Virus genome (UHGV): UHGV-0082263
Origin: a virus
Length of the DNA: 10,840 nt
Strand: one strand, 5' to 3'
Part shown: in pieces, positions 1-10,840 of the stretch
Layout: each line of letters begins with the position of its first letter
Numbering within the stretch: the first letter of the stretch is position 1
Position numbers and translations under genes: made by a program
Notes under the pieces: generated by a model
What the model was told of the DNA's origin: nothing
Databases searched by the model: none
What the model saw: the letters and a program-made list of their open reading frames with translations, nothing else

Positions 1-600
1 ACGGAATAGAGATAACACGAGGAGTGGTTAGAAATGGCTAAAGTTCTGGTGCTTTTACATAGCTAAACACGTACATTCAACTACCTGTTAATAACAGGAC
101 AATATCAGGTGAATCCCTATTCAATTTAAAGGCATTTTCCCAAGTATCTAAGCAGTTTTACACAGATTCTATGCAGTTGGTCACTATCAATATTCCCTCA
201 AAGTGACTATCAAGCTGCTTAACAGTTTTCCATGTGAAAATGTGATGAAGGTTTCTTGAGGTGGGCTTAACAGATGCTATGAAGAAAGTCAATAGATATT
301 TTAAAATTCTGCAAAGGGGGTCACATAGCTGGTGTGACAGGTACTTAGCAGCTACAGACATCTGTCTGATATTTTTGAAGATTCGGGGAAGATGAGATTC
401 AAAGAGGGCTAGTCATTTTTTATAAAAATTTTCAGAGTCTGAAAAGTTACTGTACAGATTTTGCACAATCTTACCAAGCCTCATAGTTGATTCGATTAGA
501 AGCTAATCTCATAGAAAGCTCTGTAGAGAGTTTTAACCCCATTTTTAGGGGTAGTCTATAGGTATGTACCAACCATCTTAAAATAAGGTGGTAAAATCGC

Positions 601-630
601 TTAGAATGCGTTACAGAGCGTCTGAGAAGC
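601..630 (+). repeat. Repeat element E1 (ttagaatgcgttacagagcgtctgagaagc), core CGTTACAGAGCG
   Basis: Its reverse complement (gcttctcagacgctctgtaacgcattctaa) matches 4049-4078 at 27/30 positions: 16 identical, a 4-nt block with 3 mismatches (gtaa vs caat), then 10 identical. Lies in a region with no convincing CDS. Confidence 0.75.
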
Positions 631-749
631 TATATTCACAGATTTTACTAAAGTCTCAGACTTTCTAAGTGGTCTTTTTAACAGGAGGGGTTCCTATGGT
701 CATTATCACCCTCTCTCTCGCTTAGTGAGCTACACAGACCTAGAGAACA

Positions 750-766
750 TGCTCTGTAACGCCTTC
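750..766 (-). repeat. Repeat element E4, partial inverted copy of the E1 core (tgctctgtaacgccttc)
   Basis: Matches the reverse complement of E1 at 15/17 positions, including the 12-mer gctctgtaacgc. With E1 it forms an inverted pair about 120 bp apart. Confidence 0.6.
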
Positions 767-1176
767 ACAAACATTGACTAAGGTCAACTTCATAAACTCA
801 GAGTTAAGTTACCTTGAAAGATTCTACCAAGAAACTACACAGGTGTTATTTAGTCTGACTGTGAAGGGATATTTAACGGGAGAAGAGATACGATATAACC
901 CGAAGGGAGAGTATCATCTTAACAATTATCTTAAGAATAAAACTGAAAAGTTCTTAACAGATGACTACCTAGAAAGAAGGGAACGATAAGACCAGAGGTA
1001 GTGACCTTGTTAAGTAGGTCGTTTCAAAGCCTCTTAAAAGTCTGTTAAGTAAGGTCATATGAACAATCATACCATTTTGTCAAGTGTTTTGTCTTTAGCA
1101 AAAAGTGCTAAACTCAACAAAAAGCACTAAATGCTAAAGAGACGATTAAGAAATATACTAAGAGGGCGCTTCGCTT

Positions 1177-1845
1177 GTGTCACATCCAATAATCAATATC
1201 GGTCGTTATCATGGTGGTTCTGATGACTGGCGTACACCGTATCGTTTATTTCGTAACCTACACCGTGAATTTGGTTTTACGTTAGATGGTGCCGCAACTA
1301 AGCATGACGCATTGCTACCACGGTTCACCGATGATATAAACCGTCAATCATGGGTTGGTGAACGGGTCTTCGTTAACCCGCCGTTTAGCATGGCTGAAAA
1401 GTTCCTCCTAAAAACCCCTGAAGCTGATGTGTGTGTATGTCTGGTTCCGCACAGGTCAAAGACAACTTACTGGCTTCGGTGTGTATATACAAACCCCTTT
1501 CTGCATGAGATTCGAACGTTACACCGAGCAGTCAAATACCTTCCACCAGCAGGGAAGAAAGGTGTTGTAGCGCGTTCACCGTTTGCAAGTTGCGTCCTAA
1601 TATACAGGAACACACCCCGTAAACCGAAGGTTGAAATTACCCAGACAATTTATTGTGGCGACACAATGCTTTTACTTGCCGTGGTTAACAGGGGTGGTTT
1701 ACGTGGAAGACCTCATATACACGATGCACAGACGCTTGACAGGTTGATTAAAATGTATGACCAAGAACAATCCATCAAGAGCATCGCAGAATCGCTAAGA
1801 ATGCCTCTAAGCACCACTTACAGGACTGTTCAAAGGTTGGGCTGA
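1177..1845 (+). CDS. Phage Dam-family DNA N6-adenine methyltransferase with C-terminal resolvase/Hin-like helix-turn-helix
   Basis: 222-aa ORF, GTG start at 1177 with AGAGGG at 1161-1166, stop TGA 1843-1845. Translation has WRTPYRLF near the N-terminus, FTLDGAA, and the catalytic NPPFS motif (D/N-P-P-Y/F), the pattern I recall for phage Dam-type methyltransferases. The last ~35 aa (LDRLIKMYDQEQSIKSIAESLRMPLSTTYRTVQRLG) resemble the Hin/resolvase-type HTH. Recognised from memory, no search run. Confidence 0.8.
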   Translation: MSHPIINIGRYHGGSDDWRTPYRLFRNLHREFGFTLDGAATKHDALLPRFTDDINRQSWVGERVFVNPPFSMAEKFLLKTPEADVCVCLVPHRSKTTYWLRCVYTNPFLHEIRTLHRAVKYLPPAGKKGVVARSPFASCVLIYRNTPRKPKVEITQTIYCGDTMLLLAVVNRGGLRGRPHIHDAQTLDRLIKMYDQEQSIKSIAESLRMPLSTTYRTVQRLG

Positions 1846-1891
1846 AATTCTCATATAGAGCACTGATTACGAGAATGTTAAAGAGGCGATT

Positions 1892-1914
1892 CCCCCCTCT
1901 CTGGGGTTATTCGC
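1892..1914 (+). repeat. Direct repeat copy 1 (cccccctctctggggttattcgc)
   Basis: Imperfect direct repeat of 2061-2083 (ctccctttctggggttatcgcc). Shared core is a C/T-rich tract followed by TCTGGGGTTAT and CGC. About 170 bp apart, in the 850-bp non-coding stretch downstream of the methyltransferase gene. Confidence 0.6.
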
Positions 1915-2060
1915 TTTTTACTGGAAGGGTTATTTTACAGAGGTTTTTCAAACCCCCTCAATAATAGAAACGAGCAACAAACGAAGAGCGAGAAATAAAA
2001 TATTGAGACTGGTGAACGGGGTCTGTAAAGATTGTTTAAGAAGTCGGTTAAGAAGGTGGC

Positions 2061-2083
2061 TCTCCCTTTCTGGGGTTATCGCC
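2061..2083 (+). repeat. Direct repeat copy 2 (ctccctttctggggttatcgcc)
   Basis: See copy 1. It is followed by cttagtgag (2090-2098), which also occurs at 720-728 right after another CCCTCTCTC tract (709-719). Confidence 0.6.
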
Positions 2084-2309
2084 TTGTATCTTAGTGAGTC
2101 CAGGAAGTTCTCTGTGAAGGGTCTTGTCAGTCCTTTATATTGGCTAATTACAACTCATTGAAAAATAAGTATTTTTAGAAATTACTGTCAGAGAGGTGAA
2201 TACTTGATAGATACAGCTTTCCGGTTCTGTCAAGCTGTTTTTTTAATAGATAGCACAAAATGCTAAAGATGCCCCTATACCATCACGTACAGGGGGTTTT
2301 GAAGGGAGT

Positions 2310-2498
2310 TTAACGGGGTTCTGTGTGGTTATCTGTTCGAGTCCTGTCCTTGAGGTCAAATGACCATTCACGACCAAACAATCGGAACACGATAAACACC
2401 CGAACGATGAAATAGCGGAGCAGAAGATCTGCAATCAATCCAATACCTCCACCAGCCCATACATCAGGTGACCCCAGCTCAGGAGGGAGATTTACCAT
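2310..2498 (-). CDS. Hypothetical small protein with one predicted hydrophobic helix (low confidence)
   Basis: 62-aa ORF on the - strand with ATG at 2498-2496 and AGAAGG 8 nt upstream on that strand. Translation contains GGGIGLIADLLLRYFIVRVFIVFRLF. Divergent from the 2699 gene. No motif recognised; could be spurious. Confidence 0.2.
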   Translation of the reverse strand: MVNLPPELGSPDVWAGGGIGLIADLLLRYFIVRVFIVFRLFGREWSFDLKDRTRTDNHTEPR

Positions 2499-2593
2499 TC
2501 AATGTACCTTCTGTGTGCAATGCAAAAACATGTGACCAAATACATAGCCACGCTTCATATTTCCCCCTCTCTCATAAACCATTATACCACAAA

Positions 2594-2613
2594 TGTTACG
2601 AATTTGTTACGAA
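2594..2613 (+). repeat. Tandem direct repeat TGTTACGAA-tt-TGTTACGAA (11-bp period)
   Basis: Two exact 9-mers at 2594-2602 and 2605-2613, immediately upstream of a -35-like TTGACA (2619-2624). Confidence 0.6.
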
Positions 2614-2618
2614 AATAC

Positions 2619-2660
2619 TTGACATTAGTCTTTGAAAATGCTAGTATTGTATATATAAGT
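2619..2660 (+). promoter_or_regulatory. Candidate sigma70-type promoter for the 2699-4041 cassette
   Basis: TTGACA at 2619-2624, 17-bp spacer, TAGTAT at 2642-2647; an AT-rich TGTATATATAAG tract at 2648-2659 is an alternative -10. Lies 40-80 bp upstream of ATG 2699. Hexamer match only, not validated. Confidence 0.35.
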
Positions 2661-2698
2661 TAACAGAATAATAACATCTTATGAGAGTCGGAACATGA

Positions 2699-3253
2699 AT
2701 GAGAGACGCAGAATTTAGAGCGATGCTTCAGGCATCGAGACAACGTAACAAGCACAACTCCTACGCTTACACAAACAACCCAACCAGCTACGAACTACCC
2801 AAGCTCACCAAGAAAGAACGCAAAGGCATTGACGAAGTAATTCGTAGCATTACGCCACGAGACAGATTTATGCCAACCAGAAAGAGCACCCAGAACACTA
2901 TTAAAAATTATCTGGCTAACTTTGATTCTTACGAACAATTACCAAGTAAGATTGAAGATGTAATTATCGGATTCTGTAGAAGTGAAGGCCACCCCAAATA
3001 CAACAGAAAGCTATTTTATCTGCTAAAGAATCTTGATGAAATTAACTCAGCTACCGTGACAAATCATCTTCAGCGTCAAGCAACCAGACTTAGCTACGAA
3101 TTACCAACCGATGCCTATTGTGCATTGCTTGCTGTAATGTGTGCAAAGCTAATTGGTATTGTTGAACATCATATTGCCGTTGGGAATATTGAGCCAATGG
3201 AAAACGAGCAACCAGACTTTGAGTTTGACCCGTATATTTTGGAGGAATTTTAA
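2699..3253 (+). CDS. Hypothetical protein (184 aa), first gene of a four-gene coupled cassette
   Basis: ATG 2699, stop TAA 3251-3253, 1 nt before the ATG of the next gene. SD is weak (GAGAG at 2683-2687). Acidic C-terminus (EPMENEQPDFEFDPYILEEF). No motif recognised. Confidence 0.55.
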   Translation: MRDAEFRAMLQASRQRNKHNSYAYTNNPTSYELPKLTKKERKGIDEVIRSITPRDRFMPTRKSTQNTIKNYLANFDSYEQLPSKIEDVIIGFCRSEGHPKYNRKLFYLLKNLDEINSATVTNHLQRQATRLSYELPTDAYCALLAVMCAKLIGIVEHHIAVGNIEPMENEQPDFEFDPYILEEF

Positions 3254-3254
3254 A

Positions 3255-3542
3255 ATGAAAACCAGACACACACTAACCAGAGTTACAAAGACAGCCTTTG
3301 AAGAACTTAACAAAATTAAGAAGGTTACAGGTCTTTCACATGCAGCAGTGATGAAGCTTGCAATTAACCGTGATATTAACGAGCAGGATTTGCTTAATAG
3401 TCGCTTAGAGGCAGCAAGACACCATATCAGGATTAAGCAAGATGACCTTGATAGTCTGAAATCTTTAAATGCTTTTGGACTGGATTTAGCAAGGTTGCTA
3501 AGCATCAAAATTCACAAGTTAAAGTTAGAGATGGGGGTCTGA
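3255..3542 (+). CDS. Putative ribbon-helix-helix (CopG/Arc-like) DNA-binding protein, 95 aa (tentative)
   Basis: ATG 3255 with GGAGGA at 3241-3246 (8-nt spacing). I chose this start over the track start at 3153, which would overlap the upstream gene by 100 nt. The N-terminus TLTRVTKTAFEELNKIKKVTGLSHAAVMKLAI fits the strand / helix / G-x-S turn / helix pattern of RHH folds. Pattern-level only. Confidence 0.5.
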   Translation: MKTRHTLTRVTKTAFEELNKIKKVTGLSHAAVMKLAINRDINEQDLLNSRLEAARHHIRIKQDDLDSLKSLNAFGLDLARLLSIKIHKLKLEMGV

Positions 3543-3757
3543 TGCTATGCGTTACCTTTGAATACCACACGGATAAAATGATTCGCTACATCTCCGACCT
3601 CCTGATTAAAGGAAACGGATTCGGTGACATCCATAACTCAAAAGATATTTTCATTAAAGCCATTGGCCCAAATGAAGCACTGAAAACAGCAGTTAAACCG
3701 GAATGGTTTGAGCGTCACAAGATTGAATTAGGTTATTGGGGTGAGGAGGTTTTATGA
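3542..3757 (+). CDS. Hypothetical protein (71 aa)
   Basis: ATG 3542 overlaps the upstream TGA (tgATG); G-rich tract at 3533-3537. Its stop overlaps the start of the next gene (ATGA at 3754-3757). No motif recognised. Confidence 0.45.
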   Translation: MLCVTFEYHTDKMIRYISDLLIKGNGFGDIHNSKDIFIKAIGPNEALKTAVKPEWFERHKIELGYWGEEVL

Positions 3758-4041
3758 AACCTTGGCATGAAGATGTTAGACGATATTTTACAGAACACCT
3801 TATCTATGATGAATCCAGTGATTCCCTGTGCTGGTCTGATGGAGAGTCAGTCACGATAAATACCGACGACTACGGCAACAAAACATTTAATATAGGCCGA
3901 TATACTTTCTACGTGAAATATGTTGTCTGGTTCCTTTATCATGGCTATCAATCCAACAAGCAAATTATCCATCGAAATGGTAACAGAGCCGATACCAGAC
4001 CAAAAAATCTTATGCAAGTCCGAGACTTTAAGAGAAATTAG
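3754..4041 (+). CDS. Small HNH endonuclease (HNH_3-like, phage/homing type), 95 aa
   Basis: ATG 3754 with GAGGAGG at 3743-3749, stop TAG 4039-4041. The C-terminal IIHRNGNRADTRPKNL matches the H-x-N-G-N ... D-x-R-x-x-N-L core I recall for the HNH_3/AP2-type family. No search run. Confidence 0.55.
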   Translation: MKPWHEDVRRYFTEHLIYDESSDSLCWSDGESVTINTDDYGNKTFNIGRYTFYVKYVVWFLYHGYQSNKQIIHRNGNRADTRPKNLMQVRDFKRN

Positions 4042-4048
4042 AAAAACA

Positions 4049-4078
4049 GCTTCTCAGACGCTCTCAATCGCATTCTAA
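4049..4078 (-). repeat. Repeat element E2, inverted copy of E1 (gcttctcagacgctctcaatcgcattctaa)
   Basis: 27/30 identical to the reverse complement of 601-630. Starts 8 nt after the HNH stop codon. Confidence 0.75.
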
Positions 4079-4149
4079 CGCAAAAAACTATCTTATTTTA
4101 GGGTGGGTAATACCACTGTACAGGCTACCCCTGAAAAAGACTGTTTAGC

Positions 4150-4172
4150 TCGTTACAGAGCGATTGAGGAGG
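4150..4172 (+). repeat. Repeat element E3, degenerate direct copy of E1 (tcgttacagagcgattgaggagg)
   Basis: Contains the exact 12-mer cgttacagagcg; about 18/23 identical to E1 608-630. Forms an inverted pair with E2 across ~70 bp and ends just upstream of the SD of the 4198 gene. Confidence 0.6.
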
Positions 4173-4197
4173 TCTGGTAAAAAGGAGATTTTAAGAA

Positions 4198-4503
4198 ATG
4201 AATTATTCAATGCAAGTTATGGTTGACCAAGAAACTATGAATTGGCTTAATGACCTGAACAGGTCAGGCTTTAATATCTATTTCATGCATTGTTTTGAAG
4301 CATCAACGTATATTGACAAGCATATAATCAACGAAATTAAACTTGGTGACTTTGTTCACAAACTGGAAGTAACAGACCCAGACTACAAGAGATTTATCAC
4401 AAGCGAATGCAACCGACTTGATTTAAGCCCGGAGCAATTATTGAAGCTGAATGTATTCTTAACCTATCAGAATGAATTAAACCCTTACAGTGAGGTGATG
4501 TAA
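4198..4503 (+). CDS. Hypothetical protein (101 aa)
   Basis: ATG 4198 with AAAGGAG at 4181-4187, stop TAA 4501-4503. No motif recognised. Confidence 0.5.
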   Translation: MNYSMQVMVDQETMNWLNDLNRSGFNIYFMHCFEASTYIDKHIINEIKLGDFVHKLEVTDPDYKRFITSECNRLDLSPEQLLKLNVFLTYQNELNPYSEVM

Positions 4504-4580
4504 TGATGCTCGTTATTCTCTGGACGGCTTTAGGGTTATTTGTTGGTTGCTGGGTAGGTAATACGGTAAATAAGAATTGA
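4503..4580 (+). CDS. Small hydrophobic peptide (24-25 aa), possible membrane peptide
   Basis: Tandem ATGs at 4503 and 4506 overlapping the upstream TAA; GAGGTG at 4492-4497 (5 or 8 nt spacing); stop TGA 4578-4580. Translation MMLVILWTALGLFVGCWVGNTVNKN is one hydrophobic helix plus a short polar tail. Below the length cutoff of the ORF track. Confidence 0.35.
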   Translation: MMLVILWTALGLFVGCWVGNTVNKN

Positions 4581-4604
4581 TGTTACCAATCTGTTAAAAA
4601 GCTG

Positions 4605-4633
4605 TTGACAAATAACCTTAAGCATGACATAAT
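4605..4633 (+). promoter_or_regulatory. Near-consensus sigma70-type promoter (TTGACA - 17 bp - CATAAT)
   Basis: Perfect -35 TTGACA at 4605-4610, exactly 17-bp spacer, -10 CATAAT at 4628-4633 (5/6 to TATAAT). Predicted start about 4640. First downstream gene with an SD is at 5034. Confidence 0.5.
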
Positions 4634-4642
4634 TTTAATTAT

Positions 4643-4659
4643 AGAGAGAATTTCTCTCT
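4643..4659 (+). promoter_or_regulatory. Perfect palindrome AGAGAGAA-t-TTCTCTCT at the predicted transcript start (operator candidate or 5-prime hairpin)
   Basis: 8-bp arms with a 1-nt centre, beginning about 10 nt after the -10 hexamer. Confidence 0.45.
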
Positions 4660-4808
4660 TATTTCTTTCAACAATTCCATCTACATCTAGGGATAGTTAT
4701 TCTGAAAGGTGCAATGCTTTTCGCTACATGGCCTCTTATATAACCTGAGAGGCTATCTCGAAAAGTCTTTGTTCATTCATTCGTTTGAATCCTTTACAGC
4801 TTTGCCCT

Positions 4809-4836
4809 GATTCATGATTAGGGCTTTCTTTAAGAG
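4809..4836 (+). repeat. Leader direct repeat copy 1 (gattcatgattagggctttctttaagag)
   Basis: About 25/29 identical to 4913-4941. Confidence 0.55.
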
Positions 4837-4912
4837 TTTTTAAACAGAGCTTTTAAAGAAAGTTTTCCTGAAACTTCGTTAACGTTATAAGCAAACCTTC
4901 AAAGCCCTTCAC

Positions 4913-4941
4913 AGATTATGTTTAGGGCTTTTCTTAATAGA
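4913..4941 (+). repeat. Leader direct repeat copy 2 (gattatgtttagggcttttcttaatagag)
   Basis: Direct repeat of 4809-4836. Its 3-prime end overlaps the 13-mer tcttaatagagca (4932-4944), whose perfect reverse complement tgctctattaaga lies at 4993-5005. Confidence 0.55.
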
Positions 4942-4992
4942 GCATCTTTAATAAATCGTTAAGTCATCTTCTAAGTGTATTGGCGTTGAAGG

Positions 4993-5005
4993 TGCTCTAT
5001 TAAGA
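4993..5005 (+). repeat. 13-bp perfect inverted-repeat partner (tgctctattaaga) of 4932-4944
   Basis: Exact reverse complement of 4932-4944, 48 bp away and about 15 nt upstream of the SD (AGAGGA 5021-5026) of the 5034 gene. Confidence 0.6.
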
Positions 5006-5033
5006 AATAACCACACACTTAGAGGAAAAAATA

Positions 5034-5744
5034 ATGACAAACGATATTTACATTAATGGCAAAGTGATTGATAGCTTCGGTGACTGGTCGCCACAGACTG
5101 AACATCCAGCTATCACTATCCAGCGCAAAGAACACGATGAAAGAATTGCACTTGAGCAAGAGTTAAAGATGTCACCAAAGGTAATTTCCTTTGTGTCTCC
5201 TGAGCCTCAAGAGATGCCTGATGTATGCAAAACTGAAGCATTACTTGAGCTTGAGCGTGAATATTACCCACAGTTAAAAGCACAGCGTATTAAACTTGAT
5301 GACGCTTACAGCAAAGTTACCCTGATGCAATCAGCTATTGAGCCGTCAGAATTTGAGATTCAGGATGAATTGTCACAGAAACCATTTGTCTATTACAAAT
5401 ATGAAGACAATGATGGTTTTGGTACTTTTCCTGAGAATATCCCAGACGTGATTAATAATCTTTCTGACGGATATCGAATTGTGAAGATGGTTAAGGCATC
5501 AAGAGGTGCTGGTCAGTTTATCTACATGACCAATAAAAGCGATGAAGAACTCTGTGAAATTGCTAAACAGAACATCTTGGCATCACGTAACAAGCAGCTT
5601 GATAGTGCTAAGTTGTATCTCTCAAGAGAGCTTCAGGCTATGAAAGAGCTTGTGAAAGAATATGAAGATGCTAAGAAGGTTGCTATGCAGGCTGATATTG
5701 AGCAGCTTACGAAGATTTCTCAGAAATATGCAAAGGCTATTTGA
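5034..5744 (+). CDS. Hypothetical protein (236 aa), first gene of the operon containing the tape-measure gene
   Basis: ATG 5034 with AGAGGA at 5021-5026, stop TGA 5742-5744. Acidic, helix-rich C-terminal half. No motif recognised. Confidence 0.6.
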   Translation: MTNDIYINGKVIDSFGDWSPQTEHPAITIQRKEHDERIALEQELKMSPKVISFVSPEPQEMPDVCKTEALLELEREYYPQLKAQRIKLDDAYSKVTLMQSAIEPSEFEIQDELSQKPFVYYKYEDNDGFGTFPENIPDVINNLSDGYRIVKMVKASRGAGQFIYMTNKSDEELCEIAKQNILASRNKQLDSAKLYLSRELQAMKELVKEYEDAKKVAMQADIEQLTKISQKYAKAI

Positions 5745-5752
5745 GGTGATTA

Positions 5753-6169
5753 ATGAGTCCTATTTTTTATATTCTTAGAAAGAAGTTTGATGCTATCGAT
5801 GAGATTACCGGATATCTTCGTGAACGTATTTACGAAGGTGAGTCTCTGGAAGATTTAAAATTTGATGGTCGAGATGACTTAACTTTCCTGATTAGGGATG
5901 TTAATCGGGATATTGAGCGATTAAGAGATAGTTATAATCCACCAGAAATTACTGAAATGATAGACTTTGATGATGGAACAAGAACTATTAGCGTAGCGAT
6001 TGGTGGGAGTTACATCAGGGACTTTACCAGTAAAACTAATGAAGAGTTACTTGCTGAATTTAAAGATGACTATCTAAAAAATCTCGATTCTTATCAGGCA
6101 GAATTAGATAAGCGGTATCGGGATTTAGCTGGAAAAGGCTACTTAATAGAGGAATTGCTGGACTTCTAA
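5753..6169 (+). CDS. Hypothetical acidic protein (138 aa); tail-assembly-chaperone-like by position only
   Basis: ATG 5753 with GAGGTG at 5743-5748. Acidic composition and a position two genes upstream of the tape-measure gene fit a G-type tail assembly chaperone, but no motif supports this. Confidence 0.5.
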   Translation: MSPIFYILRKKFDAIDEITGYLRERIYEGESLEDLKFDGRDDLTFLIRDVNRDIERLRDSYNPPEITEMIDFDDGTRTISVAIGGSYIRDFTSKTNEELLAEFKDDYLKNLDSYQAELDKRYRDLAGKGYLIEELLDF

Positions 6170-6192
6170 TTGAAACTAATGTGAGGTGGTGA

Positions 6193-6411
6193 ATGATTGA
6201 TTTAACAGAACGCTATGAGCTTATTAAAGCAATTAGTGAACGATTGAAAGAACAACCCAACAAACCAAAGCTACGAATTGGAAATCAACGTCGAGTTATC
6301 ACCTCACACAAACCAAAGGTACGTAAGATTCCTTCATGGTGCTTAGATAAATTACCATGTGACGCACAGATTTTAGGTGATGATGGGATGTATTCTTACG
6401 TTTACCATTAA
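6193..6411 (+). CDS. Hypothetical basic protein (72 aa)
   Basis: ATG 6193 with GAGGTGG at 6183-6189. No motif recognised. Confidence 0.45.
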   Translation: MIDLTERYELIKAISERLKEQPNKPKLRIGNQRRVITSHKPKVRKIPSWCLDKLPCDAQILGDDGMYSYVYH

Positions 6412-6454
6412 TTTGAGATTAGCTTCTAATAGAATTGGTTGGGTAAAAATCTAC

Positions 6455-6495
6455 GGGAGAGATTATCGAGTGACATCGGTAGCCCTCCCTTTTTT
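6455..6495 (+). terminator. Possible intrinsic terminator or attenuator hairpin followed by a T6 run
   Basis: GGGAGAG (6455-6461) pairs with CCCTCCC (6483-6489) with one mismatch, then TTTTTT (6490-6495). The 21-nt loop is atypically long, and the site sits inside an apparent operon. Confidence 0.25.
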
Positions 6496-6545
6496 GTATA
6501 TGAGGATAGTCTTCTATCCGAAGTCTATGAGGTGAAATATGAACA

Positions 6546-8717
6546 ATGGCACAGTTTAAAGTTGATGATTTTCTGATTGAGTTAAGTTTTAACTCTCAGA
6601 AAGTTTTAAAAGGTCTGGAAAAAGCCGAGAAACAAACGATGCAGGTAGCATCACGAATTGAGAAGCGATTGAATAAGGCGTTTAAAGTGAATCCTACGCC
6701 TTTAAATGATTCTCTCAAACTAATGGAAAAGAATGTCGATAAAACTGTTTCCAAGATTGAGCAGCGTCTTAAAAACACTAAAGCGTTTAAGATTAAAACT
6801 GAAATTGAGGATACTCTAAAGCCACTTAGACAGCCAAGACAGCCACGAATTAGCGGCAACAGAGCAATCACAGCAGCGCATAGCGTGAATATGTCTAAGC
6901 TTGGTGATATTAATCCGCTGATGGCTAAAATGTTTAAAGCACAGTATTACAGCTTAAGCGGTAAGGCTGGTAATATTGGAAGTGAAAAGTTTAACGCTGA
7001 ACTTGCAATATTAAATCAATCTCTTCGTGAAACGTTGAATAAACTCAGGTCACAGACAAAGACCACCAGCATTAACAATACAAGCGACGCATTTAATAAT
7101 CTTGCAAGCAATGCAATCAAGTTATCTGGTGCATTTTACTCTGTGATGGGTGCTCTTAACGCTTACAAGGCCATCATGAATGCAGGTCTTAAACGAGATT
7201 CCGCACAGAGAGCCGCTAAGTTTGTACTTGGTGATAAAGCATCTGAAGCTGAGGTATTTATTCGAAATTTAGCAGACAAGACAGGTCTTAATATCTCTGA
7301 AGGGCTATCAAGCTACGCTAAGTTTGCAGCAGGTGCTCAGGGTTCTATGTCACAGGAACAGACACAGGAGCTATTTGGTAATGCAACGGCTATGAGTCGC
7401 TTAATGGGGCTTTCTAACGATGAGCTAAACGGCATTTTGAAAGCTTTTGAGCAGATGGCGAGCAAGGGCAAGATTCAGGCTGAAGAGCTTCGTGGACAGT
7501 TGGGTGACCGTATGGCTGGTGCATTTAAGCTATTCGCTGAAGCATTGGGTATGACTGCTACAGAGCTTGATAAAGCGATGAAAGACGGGAAGATTTTAAG
7601 TAGTGATACTCTCCCTAAAGTCGCTAAACAGATGGGCTTGATGATTGATAAAGCGGGTGGCTGGGCTGAAGTCGCTAAGAGCACTCAGACAGCTTTAGGG
7701 AAACTGGCTAACAACTGGGATGATACGATGGTGAAAATCTTCTCAGGTTCACAGGATGAGCTAAACGGCTTCTTATCCAGCCTGAGTAACCTGCTTAGTG
7801 AAATGGGGATGAGTTCTTCTATCGCTGGTGATGCTATCGGTGGACTTATCGACATGCTTAAAGCTGGTGTAGATGACATCCGTATCTTTAACAATCACCT
7901 TGAAGGCTGGATTTTACAGACTAAGAAGTTCTATTACAGCCTTGATGACACTAAACGAAAACTACTTGATGAAGTCGGTGATGGATTTATCAATTTTGTC
8001 AAAGGTCTTGCTATAGCGTTATCTGCAAAGACGCTATTCAGTGCCACTACAGGGATTATGAACCTGACAAGAGCAATCACAACGTTAGGTACAAGAGCTA
8101 ATCAGGTGGCTGGTCAGGTAGCTACTGGTAAAGGTGGTGGAAAACTGAAAGGTGTAGCTGGTGGTGTAGGTAGTGCTCTTGCAATTGGTTATGCTGATGA
8201 CGGTTATGAAACAGCGTTAGCATTAGCTTCAATGATTCCACAAATCAGAGGCGTCACTCTTGGTTTATATGCATTGAAGAAAGCACTGGATTTTATGAAT
8301 CAGGAAGTAGTCAAAAACGCTAATATGCATCCATCTGGGGTAGGTGTGGGTAGTGACTTTAATCCTGTGTATTCTGGTGACCCTAATAAACCGAATATGA
8401 TTAACGAAGGATGGAGTAGAATTTTTAGTTCAATGGGTGAATTGTTTAACAATGCCACAATGAATATTGCAAGATTCAATCATCCAGAATTGATTACCAT
8501 GAAACAAGATGCATCATTAACGAGCACTGACATCCAAAATCTAAGAGATGAAATTAGTGCTTTAAGTAAGCGTATTCAGGAGCCTGTGAAAGTTTCACTT
8601 GGTGGTGAAGTTGCCATTAAACCAGATGAAACCAGCTTTATGACCTTTAGCAGTAATATCTACGACCAATATGCAGAAGCTACGTTATTAAGTTCATCAT
8701 TCCCAGAAGATGATTGA
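6546..8717 (+). CDS. Phage tail tape-measure protein (723 aa)
   Basis: ATG 6546 with GAGGTGA at 6529-6535, stop TGA 8715-8717. The central segment LNGILKAFEQMASKGKIQAEELRGQLGDRMAGAFKLFAEALGMTATELDKAMKDGKILSSDTLPKV matches the conserved tape-measure domain signature as I recall it. Also has a glycine-rich hydrophobic stretch (GKGGGKLKGVAGGVGSALAIGY) and a long helical N-terminal region, both typical of tape-measure proteins. Confidence 0.8.
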   Translation: MAQFKVDDFLIELSFNSQKVLKGLEKAEKQTMQVASRIEKRLNKAFKVNPTPLNDSLKLMEKNVDKTVSKIEQRLKNTKAFKIKTEIEDTLKPLRQPRQPRISGNRAITAAHSVNMSKLGDINPLMAKMFKAQYYSLSGKAGNIGSEKFNAELAILNQSLRETLNKLRSQTKTTSINNTSDAFNNLASNAIKLSGAFYSVMGALNAYKAIMNAGLKRDSAQRAAKFVLGDKASEAEVFIRNLADKTGLNISEGLSSYAKFAAGAQGSMSQEQTQELFGNATAMSRLMGLSNDELNGILKAFEQMASKGKIQAEELRGQLGDRMAGAFKLFAEALGMTATELDKAMKDGKILSSDTLPKVAKQMGLMIDKAGGWAEVAKSTQTALGKLANNWDDTMVKIFSGSQDELNGFLSSLSNLLSEMGMSSSIAGDAIGGLIDMLKAGVDDIRIFNNHLEGWILQTKKFYYSLDDTKRKLLDEVGDGFINFVKGLAIALSAKTLFSATTGIMNLTRAITTLGTRANQVAGQVATGKGGGKLKGVAGGVGSALAIGYADDGYETALALASMIPQIRGVTLGLYALKKALDFMNQEVVKNANMHPSGVGVGSDFNPVYSGDPNKPNMINEGWSRIFSSMGELFNNATMNIARFNHPELITMKQDASLTSTDIQNLRDEISALSKRIQEPVKVSLGGEVAIKPDETSFMTFSSNIYDQYAEATLLSSSFPEDD

Positions 8718-8812
8718 TTTAACGGTGTTCTACGTGAATAAAGCAAAGTTAATACCCACACTGAAAAATAATTTTTACGTAGCTCACGCTTAACAGAGAA
8801 AATACTTATATA

Positions 8813-8856
8813 TCAAAGGCTTGGTTAAAAATGATTAAAATACACTAAGCCTTTGA
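8813..8856 (+). promoter_or_regulatory. 10-bp inverted repeat (tcaaaggctt ... aagcctttga) with 24-nt AT-rich spacer, just upstream of the SD of the 8874 gene
   Basis: Arms at 8813-8822 and 8847-8856 are exact reverse complements; the SD AAAGGAG at 8861-8867 follows. Confidence 0.4.
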
Positions 8857-8873
8857 AATCAAAGGAGAATTTA

Positions 8874-9662
8874 ATGATTTACACTAATCAAATCCGCTAC
8901 AGTGGCAAAGATGGCATCTATTTCCACTTAAGAGATAATGTAGATGCCTTCTTAACCCTATCAGCAACTGAGAACATGGAATTTGATAGTCCTATGCAGG
9001 TAACTACACAGAATATGCAATCAGGGCAAACAGTCACAGATAATGTGCAAAGAGCACCCAGAACAATCACTATTAGTGGTGTCGTCGTAGTTGGCTATGA
9101 AGGGAGCTTATTACTAACTCGTCAAGGCCAATTAGTAGAGAACTTCATCGACACTCTTGAAAGCTGGCGTGACCAGAAGCAGATTATTTCGGTCATCTGT
9201 AAAGATGGTATCAAGATTGATGATTCCATTATTACGAGTTTTAAAGCCTCTAAAGATGTTGGTATTTCAAATGGTCTAAGAATCCAGCTAACTTTTCAGG
9301 AAATTAACTTCAAAGCTGTTGTGGGTCAAACTGATATCTCGGCTGCAACTGGAAAGGCTGCCACTACGAATGATGGTGGTGTGACCAGTAAGAAGAATGC
9401 AGGTAACGTGACCACTGAACGCAATAACGCGCCTATGCTATCGTGCAAAGAGCTAATGAGTATTAGCGATGTATCCGGTTACGCTCCAGCTATCAGAAAT
9501 GATATTCTCGATGCTCAGATTAAGTGTAATAAGGCTTGGAAGCTGGACTATTCAGACTTAACAGAAGCTGAAAAAACCAACGTCACCAATGCTAATAGTA
9601 ACGCTGGTCGAGTAGCTTCAAAGCTTAAAAAGTACTCAGTGAACCCTAATAAAAAATACTAA
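8874..9662 (+). CDS. Hypothetical protein (262 aa); possible tail or baseplate component by position
   Basis: ATG 8874 with AAAGGAG at 8861-8867, preferred over the track TTG start at 8853. Stop TAA 9660-9662 overlaps the stop of the convergent recombinase gene. Sits directly downstream of the tape-measure gene. No motif recognised. Confidence 0.55.
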
Positions 9663-10786
9663 GCGTCCACCTCTTCCATATCACCAGCAGGATAAATCCT
9701 TGTTACTGGTTCACCAAAAATAAGCATATCATCTAATGACTGCATCTCATCGGTTGCTTCTTCAAGCGTTAAGGTGTGGTCATCTTTACCATCAAGAGGA
9801 AAACCACGAATCATATTTCCATTGTGAAGATATATATCCACCAGCTTTTCATTACCAGAAACAACAATCTCTTTCACCAGACGCTTAATGATAATCTGGG
9901 CTTCAGTTCTCCCCTCTACAGACTCCATATCAAGACCGCTTAAATCCAAGCTTGATACAGATTTTACCCTCGCCTTTTCTCGTGATAACTGAACTATCAG
10001 TTCATCTTTTTCTTCCTGTTTAACCCGTAGTGCTTCCTGAATCTGAGTGATGTTAGGAAGCTGTATCAGCGTCTCAGTGAGTTTTTCCAGTTCACCATCA
10101 ACGGTGTTTAATCTTCTTTGTAGTTCATCTAATTTAGCTGTATCGGTAGCTTCATCGTGTAGCTGTGACAGTTTGCTGAACAGACGACTACAAAGCTGTG
10201 TATCAAGTAACTTTCTGGACACTGTACCGTAGCTACAACGGGACTCCTTATTACCATTGCAACGGTAAGTACCTTGATAAACGGGTTTACGTATCCCTGT
10301 AGGAGTCATTACAAGCCCACACTTACAACGGATAAGCCCCTTCAGTATGTTCACATATAGCCAGTGTTCACCGCTGGATGTTTTCCCCTTCCCTGTTTCC
10401 TCTAACAGTTGCTGTACAGCGTAAAACTTAGAATCTGTGACAATCTGAGGATAGAACCCTTCAATTTCTTCACGTAACACTGTTTTACGGTCTTCTGTAG
10501 AAATCTTGGCGGGAAGGTAACCTAATACACTTCGTGAAGTCAGGATGTGTTTAACGCTTAAAGCTGACCAGTTACCATCCGGTTTCTTAGTCTTGGATAT
10601 TCTGACCTTACGCTGATTAATGGTCGGGTAACCTTGTTCGTTTAGCCATTTACAGATAGCAAACATCGACATACCAGAAAGACGCTTGTCATAGATGATA
10701 TTCACCAGTGACGCTTTATCTTCATCAACGATGTAGTGTGAACCGTCTTCTGATAGCTCTAACCATCCGGGGGCTTGCTTACCCAT
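9659..10786 (-). CDS. Large serine recombinase, recombinase-domain + zinc-ribbon + coiled-coil portion (375 aa); N-terminal catalytic domain not in this ORF
   Basis: Translation opens with GKQAPGW...[37 protein letters not shown], which looks like the start of the recombinase domain. It then has [16 protein letters not shown]...[21 protein letters not shown], the four-Cys zinc ribbon typical of large serine recombinases, and a long coiled-coil-like C-terminus. No resolvase catalytic motif is present. An in-frame TGA (10796-10798) lies 3 codons upstream of the ATG and no SD precedes the ATG. Confidence 0.8.
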
Positions 10787-10840
10787 TGCGTATTTTCATG
10801 AAAGGAGATCACTCAATAACTTCCATCGAGATCGGGTAAT

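Follow-up and report, generated by a model that had tools for sequence, protein, structure and literature searches.

ISEc12 is known to split the tssM gene of Escherichia coli ST131, where it is flanked by a 5-bp target duplication (PMC10711316). In clade C of this sequence type, the disrupted tssM is annotated as two fragments, the insertion goes back to one ancestral event inherited clonally, and contigs tend to break at the IS (PMC10711316). The locus described here is alike in each of these traits, including the identity of the IS. It differs in its target, an island integrase instead of a T6SS gene, and in strain TUM1886 the IS itself carries a nested IS1414. On a more general level, the locus follows the standard pattern of prophage or island "grounding", in which an IS inactivates the integrase and the cargo genes are kept, and no notable difference from that pattern was found.

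Large serine recombinases (LSRs) of the phiC31/A118/Bxb1 type are the closest relatives of the affected integrase. Its intact allele shares with them the order of Resolvase, Recombinase and zinc ribbon with a putative coiled-coil, and its attP likewise lies just upstream of int. The relationship to phiC31 integrase is distant (E ~1e-9) and, unlike phiC31-type LSRs, the copy studied here has lost residues 1-172 together with the catalytic serine.

PLE of Vibrio cholerae is an LSR-integrated satellite of the lytic myovirus ICP1. In its gene content, the island that hosts our integrase resembles PLE: it measures ~11 kb, carries an LSR integrase, gives no matches to capsid, terminase or replication families, and has apparently exchanged genes recently with a group of virulent myoviruses, here Felixounavirus. 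We regard this likeness as a lead only.

We analysed a stretch of 10,840 nucleotides (UHGV-0082263), hereafter called the window, which has a 375-aa ORF on the minus strand near its end. According to the alignments presented below, this ORF almost certainly represents the last two-thirds of a 547-aa serine integrase gene, of the ordinary kind, that ISEc12 has cut in two.

Results

A recombinase ORF devoid of its catalytic domain

Coordinates of the features are collected in Table 1. A preliminary description of the window, made from its letters, had reported a large serine recombinase ORF devoid of its catalytic domain. Pfam agrees: the Recombinase domain (PF07508) spans residues 22-130 with a score of 73.1 bits (cut-off 21.1; E=2.4e-20), and no match to the Resolvase catalytic domain (PF00239) was obtained in the 375 residues. 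The reported zinc ribbon stands in so far as four cysteines are present, arranged as CxC...CxxxxxxxC and aligning with the zinc-domain segment CECGAVMT...YRC of phiC31 integrase, but the Pfam score of Zn_ribbon_recom (PF13408, residues 147-196) is 22.5 bits, just below the cut-off of 25.3. Similarly, the ORF was said to begin exactly at the recombinase domain. Its start aligns with phiC31 integrase at RELGGYVGGKAPYGF and, by this alignment, is taken to lie in the linker between alphaE and the recombinase domain; the Pfam domain itself starts 21 residues later.

The surroundings of the start codon are also much as first described. No GGAG-like motif is present within the 20 nt 5' of the ATG at 10786, in agreement with the reported lack of a Shine-Dalgarno sequence, and an in-frame TGA does occur on the minus strand 3 codons upstream of the ATG, at 10796-10798. 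Read from the window edge, the minus-strand frame is ITRSRWKLLSDLLS-TGA-KYA-ATG. The open frame noted upstream of the TGA is only 14 codons long and carries no meaning, as 14 stop-free codons have a chance probability of ~0.42 at this composition.

Table 1. Features of the window and of the recombinase fragments annotated in TUM1886 (L001)
Feature	Position	Strand	Remarks
Chromosomal flank and attL	1..55	+	displaced wrbA promoter, Shine-Dalgarno sequence and first 7 codons; ATG 34-36
Island body	56..9658	+	served by the disrupted integrase; several ORFs without family
Dam-like methyltransferase with HTH tail	1177-1845		
HNH endonuclease	3754-4041		
Tape measure protein	6546-8717		
Dit-like baseplate protein	8853-9662		
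Large serine recombinase (integrase), 3' fragment	9659..10786	-	375 aa, ATG start; Pfam and alignment to intact gene
CCCAT target-duplication copy	10782..10786	.	CCCAT on + strand, ATGGG on - strand, encodes Met173-Gly174
First 54 bp of ISEc12 left terminal inverted repeat (TGCGTATTTTCATGAAAGGAGATCAC...)	10787..10840	+	54/54 identical; holds TGA 10796-10798 (- strand)
Recombinase C-fragment CDS	L001 6025-7152		WP_226454150.1, 375 aa; PGAP
Recombinase N-fragment CDS	L001 11029-11577		WP_242791671.1, 182 aa; PGAP

The intact gene

An intact counterpart of the ORF is found in strain A7. This gene is 1644 bp long and codes for 547 aa. The Resolvase domain covers residues 5-155, the Recombinase domain 194-302 and the Zn ribbon 319-368; the gene product aligns to the phiC31 integrase and A118 integrase structures. 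The N-terminus of the protein, MKLLVTYIRWSTKEQ, contains the sequence YIRWSTKEQ, which we take to be the usual serine-nucleophile motif (Ser11). In the alignment, the window fragment corresponds to codons Met173-Ala547 plus the stop codon; the Recombinase domain, the probable zinc ribbon and the putative coiled-coil/C-terminal region are kept and the catalytic domain is missing. Nucleotide identity to the A7 gene is 99.4% as far as position 10786, where the similarity ends, and the protein sequences differ in a single amino acid.

The break falls within ...RELKKPM173G174KQAPGW... of the intact protein. What serves as the start codon of the window ORF is the native codon of an internal residue, Met173, situated inside the duplicated ATGGG (minus strand). 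The fragment thus begins with ATG because the target duplication CCCAT/ATGGG includes the Met173 codon.

A search through 5426 complete E. coli genomes found the integrase gene in 74. In 58 of these carriers, 80% or more of the gene is covered by a single place, and at least 55 have it uninterrupted along 100% of its length; ~19 of the 74 have the wrbA-type gene without a contiguous copy. A contiguous 1644-bp gene in at least 55 genomes means that this family does not naturally start at the position where the window ORF starts.

The sequence beyond the breakpoint

When positions 9400-10840 were compared with phage records by megablast, matches were confined to the last 54-55 bases, which are 100% identical in unrelated E. 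coli phages. A search of complete E. coli genomes with the window end returned 28 records with a single place spanning 80% or more of the query. Among the best 30 matches, 29 end exactly at query position 1387, equivalent to 10786 of the window, the sole exception being TUM1886, which continues through the junction to 10840. Perfect copies of the last 54 bases are present in 2222 E. coli records; the median genome has them at 3 places, and they occur on plasmids too. Such multi-copy occurrence in genomes and plasmids is the signature of an insertion sequence end. Indeed, in TUM1886 the sequence that precedes istA and istB of ISEc12 is identical to these 54 bp.

The window, the intact allele (A7, L002) and the IS allele (TUM1886, L001) were aligned base by base. 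All three are identical through ...GCTTGCTTACCCAT, after which the window and TUM1886 proceed with TGCGTATTTTCATGAAAGGAGATCAC... and A7 with AGGCTTCTTAAG... The left breakpoint consequently lies between CTTACCCAT and TGCGTATTTT. Alignment to the IS allele places the right junction between ...AATACGCA and CCCATAGGC, and the far side of the IS in TUM1886 reads ...GGTAATACGCA followed by CCCATAGGCTTCTTAAG. The pentanucleotide CCCAT flanks the IS on both sides in TUM1886 and in three further assemblies (L007, L008 and L010), which identifies it as a 5-bp target-site duplication; its second copy is located beyond the window.

The ends of ISEc12 are imperfect inverted repeats of the TG...CA form (IRL TGCGTATTTTCATGAAAGGAGATCAC, IRR TGCGTATTACCGTGAAGGAGATCGG), and the element is 2581 bp long without the nested IS1414. 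The consecutive genes istA, for the DDE transposase, and istB, for the AAA+ helper, lie outside the window; their membership in the IS21 family was checked on genomes that have exactly this junction. With the NCBIfam models, IstA (513 aa) reaches 310.5 bits for NF033546 (cut-off 160) and IstB (248 aa) 269.5 bits for NF038214 (cut-off 200).

These alignments change the meaning of everything upstream of position 10786. The TGA does not stand in the place of a recombinase sense codon; comparison with the intact gene puts it in the ISEc12 terminal inverted repeat. The KYA codons and the open frame upstream are ISEc12 sequence as well and bear no likeness to the intact gene. Followed through the full ISEc12, the same frame is closed again after another 30 codons, with many stops after that, and no Resolvase domain appears in the translation. 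The catalytic domain expected in the minus-strand frame is accordingly not encoded by the upstream sequence of genomes with the identical allele.

The split allele in other genomes

In the assembly collection, 135 index blocks contain precisely this 375-aa protein. All eight independent assemblies with this protein that we examined have the identical junction. Four draft contigs break off 77-157 bp into the IS, as is expected for a repeat. The full IS is present in all four long contigs, three of which (L007, L008, L010) continue after it with CCCAT and a Resolvase fragment adjoining wrbA. Removal in silico of the IS and of one CCCAT from L010 restores the 547-aa ORF. Recurrence of the same junction in independent assemblies excludes sequencing error and shows one ancestral insertion, clonally inherited.

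The fourth long contig, L009 (GCA_051593065.1), has the identical left junction, but a CbtA-toxin/antirestriction island is located beyond ISEc12. This implies recombination between IS copies, inversion or translocation, and the far side may thus vary between strains.

The closest complete genome, TUM1886, matches the window end to end with 99.8% identity, save for two additional IS in its Dit gene, and the last 1206 window bases with 100% identity, junction included. The order of elements in this strain is recombinase C-fragment, ISEc12 istA/istB, nested IS1414, 549-nt recombinase N-fragment (182 aa), wrbA. The 182-aa fragment contains the catalytic domain and no DNA-binding domains, and it ends in IS sequence as ...KKPMG-AYYREGDR, followed by a stop codon. 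RefSeq/PGAP annotates the two halves as separate "recombinase family protein" CDSs and not as one pseudogene.

TUM1886 has suffered IS damage beyond that of the window (L001/L003 12359-15684 and 9694-10902): its Dit-like gene contains an IS3-family element and an IS1414, and a further IS1414 has entered the right end of ISEc12. Since the window is free of these extra IS, its lineage represents an earlier stage of decay.

Proposed course of events

ISEc12 (IS21 family, istA and istB, 2581 bp) almost certainly transposed into the island integrase gene in E. coli. The insertion took place after codon Gly174, between the catalytic domain with the alphaE helix and the recombinase domain, and duplicated the 5 bp CCCAT. 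The window thus stops 54 bp into ISEc12, and the 375-aa ORF is a 3' fragment without promoter or Shine-Dalgarno sequence, read from the accidental start Met173. The 182-aa catalytic fragment with the Ser11 motif YIRWSTKEQ would be left on the opposite side of the IS, adjoining wrbA. Of the IS, the window includes 54 bp, together with one copy of the duplication; the rest of the element and the N-terminal fragment are deduced, for the window's own genome, from genomes with the identical allele.

We also considered expression of the fragment from an outward-facing promoter at the left end of the IS. This was rejected, as a sigma-70 scan of both strands of L001 6900-7450, which covers that end, detected no promoter-like site. 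In IS21, the known outward -35 sits at the other end (IRR).

Alternative explanations

A recombinase that naturally lacks the catalytic domain, or is split or recoded, might be envisaged, with the 375-aa DNA-binding protein as a functional product that, for example, regulates or binds att sites, or that works together in trans with the 182-aa fragment. Neither fragment has yet acquired a frameshift or a stop, the allele is common (the 135 index blocks mentioned above) and PGAP calls both halves CDS. Yet homologues have 547 aa, and at least 55 of the 74 complete genomes carrying the gene have it uninterrupted, the ORF has no Shine-Dalgarno sequence, the scan of both strands at the left end of the IS detected no promoter-like site, and the start coincides with the IS target duplication, not with a conserved start. 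The frequency of the allele fits clonal inheritance of one event. To our knowledge, there is no precedent for trans-complementation of separated LSR halves. We therefore consider this explanation very improbable; the contiguous 1644-bp gene and the ORF restored upon deletion of the IS exclude the split or recoded enzyme suggested in the preliminary description.

An artefact, be it a chimeric join or a base-call error at the junction, deserves hardly any credence. IS copies do break short-read assemblies, and several draft contigs stop 77-157 bp from the junction, but the same junction recurs in eight of eight assemblies, among them complete chromosomes with the full IS, the matching 5-bp duplication and the other half of the gene. 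The sequencing error suspected earlier can accordingly be discarded.

Finally, the chance that a sense codon mutated to TGA, with the catalytic domain encoded in an open frame past the window edge, is negligible, as this idea had nothing but the appearance of the 14-codon frame (itself expected by chance with a probability of ~0.42) in its favour, whereas the TGA and all DNA upstream of 10786 belong to the IS and lack similarity to the intact gene, and the frame shuts again 30 codons up in the IS without any Resolvase domain. Alignment to the intact allele thus refutes the claim of a nonsense mutation and, together with translation of the frame through the full IS, disposes of recoding as well.

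The island and its integration site

The integrase disrupted, in our reading, by ISEc12 belongs to an island of ~11 kb integrated in the 5' end of wrbA. The window comprises nearly all of it, from attL to the IS in int. Homology to K-12 MG1655 stops at window position 55. Comparison of the sites revealed a core, GTGCTTT, common to attB, attL and attR (window 49-55); attB corresponds to codons 5-8 of K-12 wrbA, attL to window 46-55, and attR is found in L002 at 5930-5985. The start of int is ~75 bp from attR, and attP is immediately upstream of int. The original wrbA start (ATG 34-36) is left as a stub at attL, and the island supplies a new Shine-Dalgarno sequence and start, so that WrbA begins with MSVKARILVLYYS instead of MAKVLVLYYS as in K-12.

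The tape measure and Dit-like genes (together 6546-9662) are the only recognisable virion genes of the island. The tape measure protein shares ~32% amino acid identity with that of Felixounavirus. The Dit-like gene is much closer to its relative, the gene directly downstream of the tape measure gene in Felixounavirus SapYZU01 (91% nucleotide identity over 519 bp, 8889-9407; 73% amino acid identity). No matches to capsid, terminase or replication families were found in the island. PADLOC, run on the island ORFs, returned an orphan-methyltransferase match for the Dam-like gene and nothing else, and NCBIfam gave no matches for the three ORFs without family that were scanned (184, 236 and 138 aa) or for the Dit-like protein. 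Lone tail genes without those of capsid, terminase and replication suggest a satellite-like or tail-interfering island and not a decayed prophage. A literature search for a wrbA-integrating serine-recombinase island or a Felixounavirus satellite found nothing relevant.

The 236-aa ORF (5034-5744) has no match in Pfam, PHROG, PADLOC or NCBIfam. PGAP tags its counterparts as "transposase" (e.g. L004 7838-8545), a label to which our searches gave no support. The island varies in its left part. The methyltransferase of the window (1177-1845) is fused to a resolvase-type HTH (HTH_7, weak match), and related islands possess a ~185-aa serine recombinase gene near attL (L004 2924-3493; L005 4409-4957), at a position corresponding to the region upstream of the methyltransferase gene in the window.

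A related island with the same gene order is present in 1EC213 (L005 4409-17604), where it lies between yciI and tonB and has a different serine integrase. One island architecture thus recurs at two places in the chromosome, each time with a different serine integrase.

Repeated IS insertions in island integrases

The integrase of the 1EC213 island is also split by ISEc12, at another position and with the target duplication CCTGA. Independent IS insertions into the wrbA-type integrase include IS66 in L015 and L017, the IS21-family element ISSso4 in L016, two IS3-family elements in L018, and ISSen4 in H105. Altogether, the wrbA-type integrases of the 74 genomes have been hit independently at least six times, to which the one insertion in the yciI/tonB-site integrase of 1EC213 is to be added.

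Discussion

Neither product of the split gene should be able to catalyse recombination, since one fragment is without the nucleophile and the other without the DNA-binding domains. With no recombining fragment, the island would be fixed in place, probably immobilised and no longer capable of excision except with the help of an intact paralogue in trans. The preliminary description had likewise considered an inactivated integrase in a decaying, immobilised element, and this part of it is supported; the cause is different, the ISEc12 insertion. Because both halves are otherwise undamaged and the window fragment is one amino acid off the A7 protein, we infer that the event is recent.

The repeated IS insertions could reflect either neutral decay or selection for immobilisation. 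The island itself may represent a satellite-like element or a defence island with ties to Felix O1-like phages. Should it be an undescribed PLE-like satellite or anti-phage island directed against virulent Felix O1-like phages, IS hits in the integrase could reflect selection to lock it in the chromosome, the 375-aa remnant being non-functional also then. We consider this full scenario unlikely, though worth keeping in mind.

The finding also bears on annotation. Catalogues of "catalytic-domain-less recombinases" are open to contamination by halves of pseudogenes such as those annotated here by PGAP, and an apparent in-frame stop near the edge of a window or contig should be compared with IS ends before recoding is invoked.

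An integrase pseudogene disrupted by an IS is an already known kind of event and belongs to routine genome decay. For the bacteria that have inherited it, the junction between CTTACCCAT and TGCGTATTTT is a handy clonal marker of the carrier lineage.
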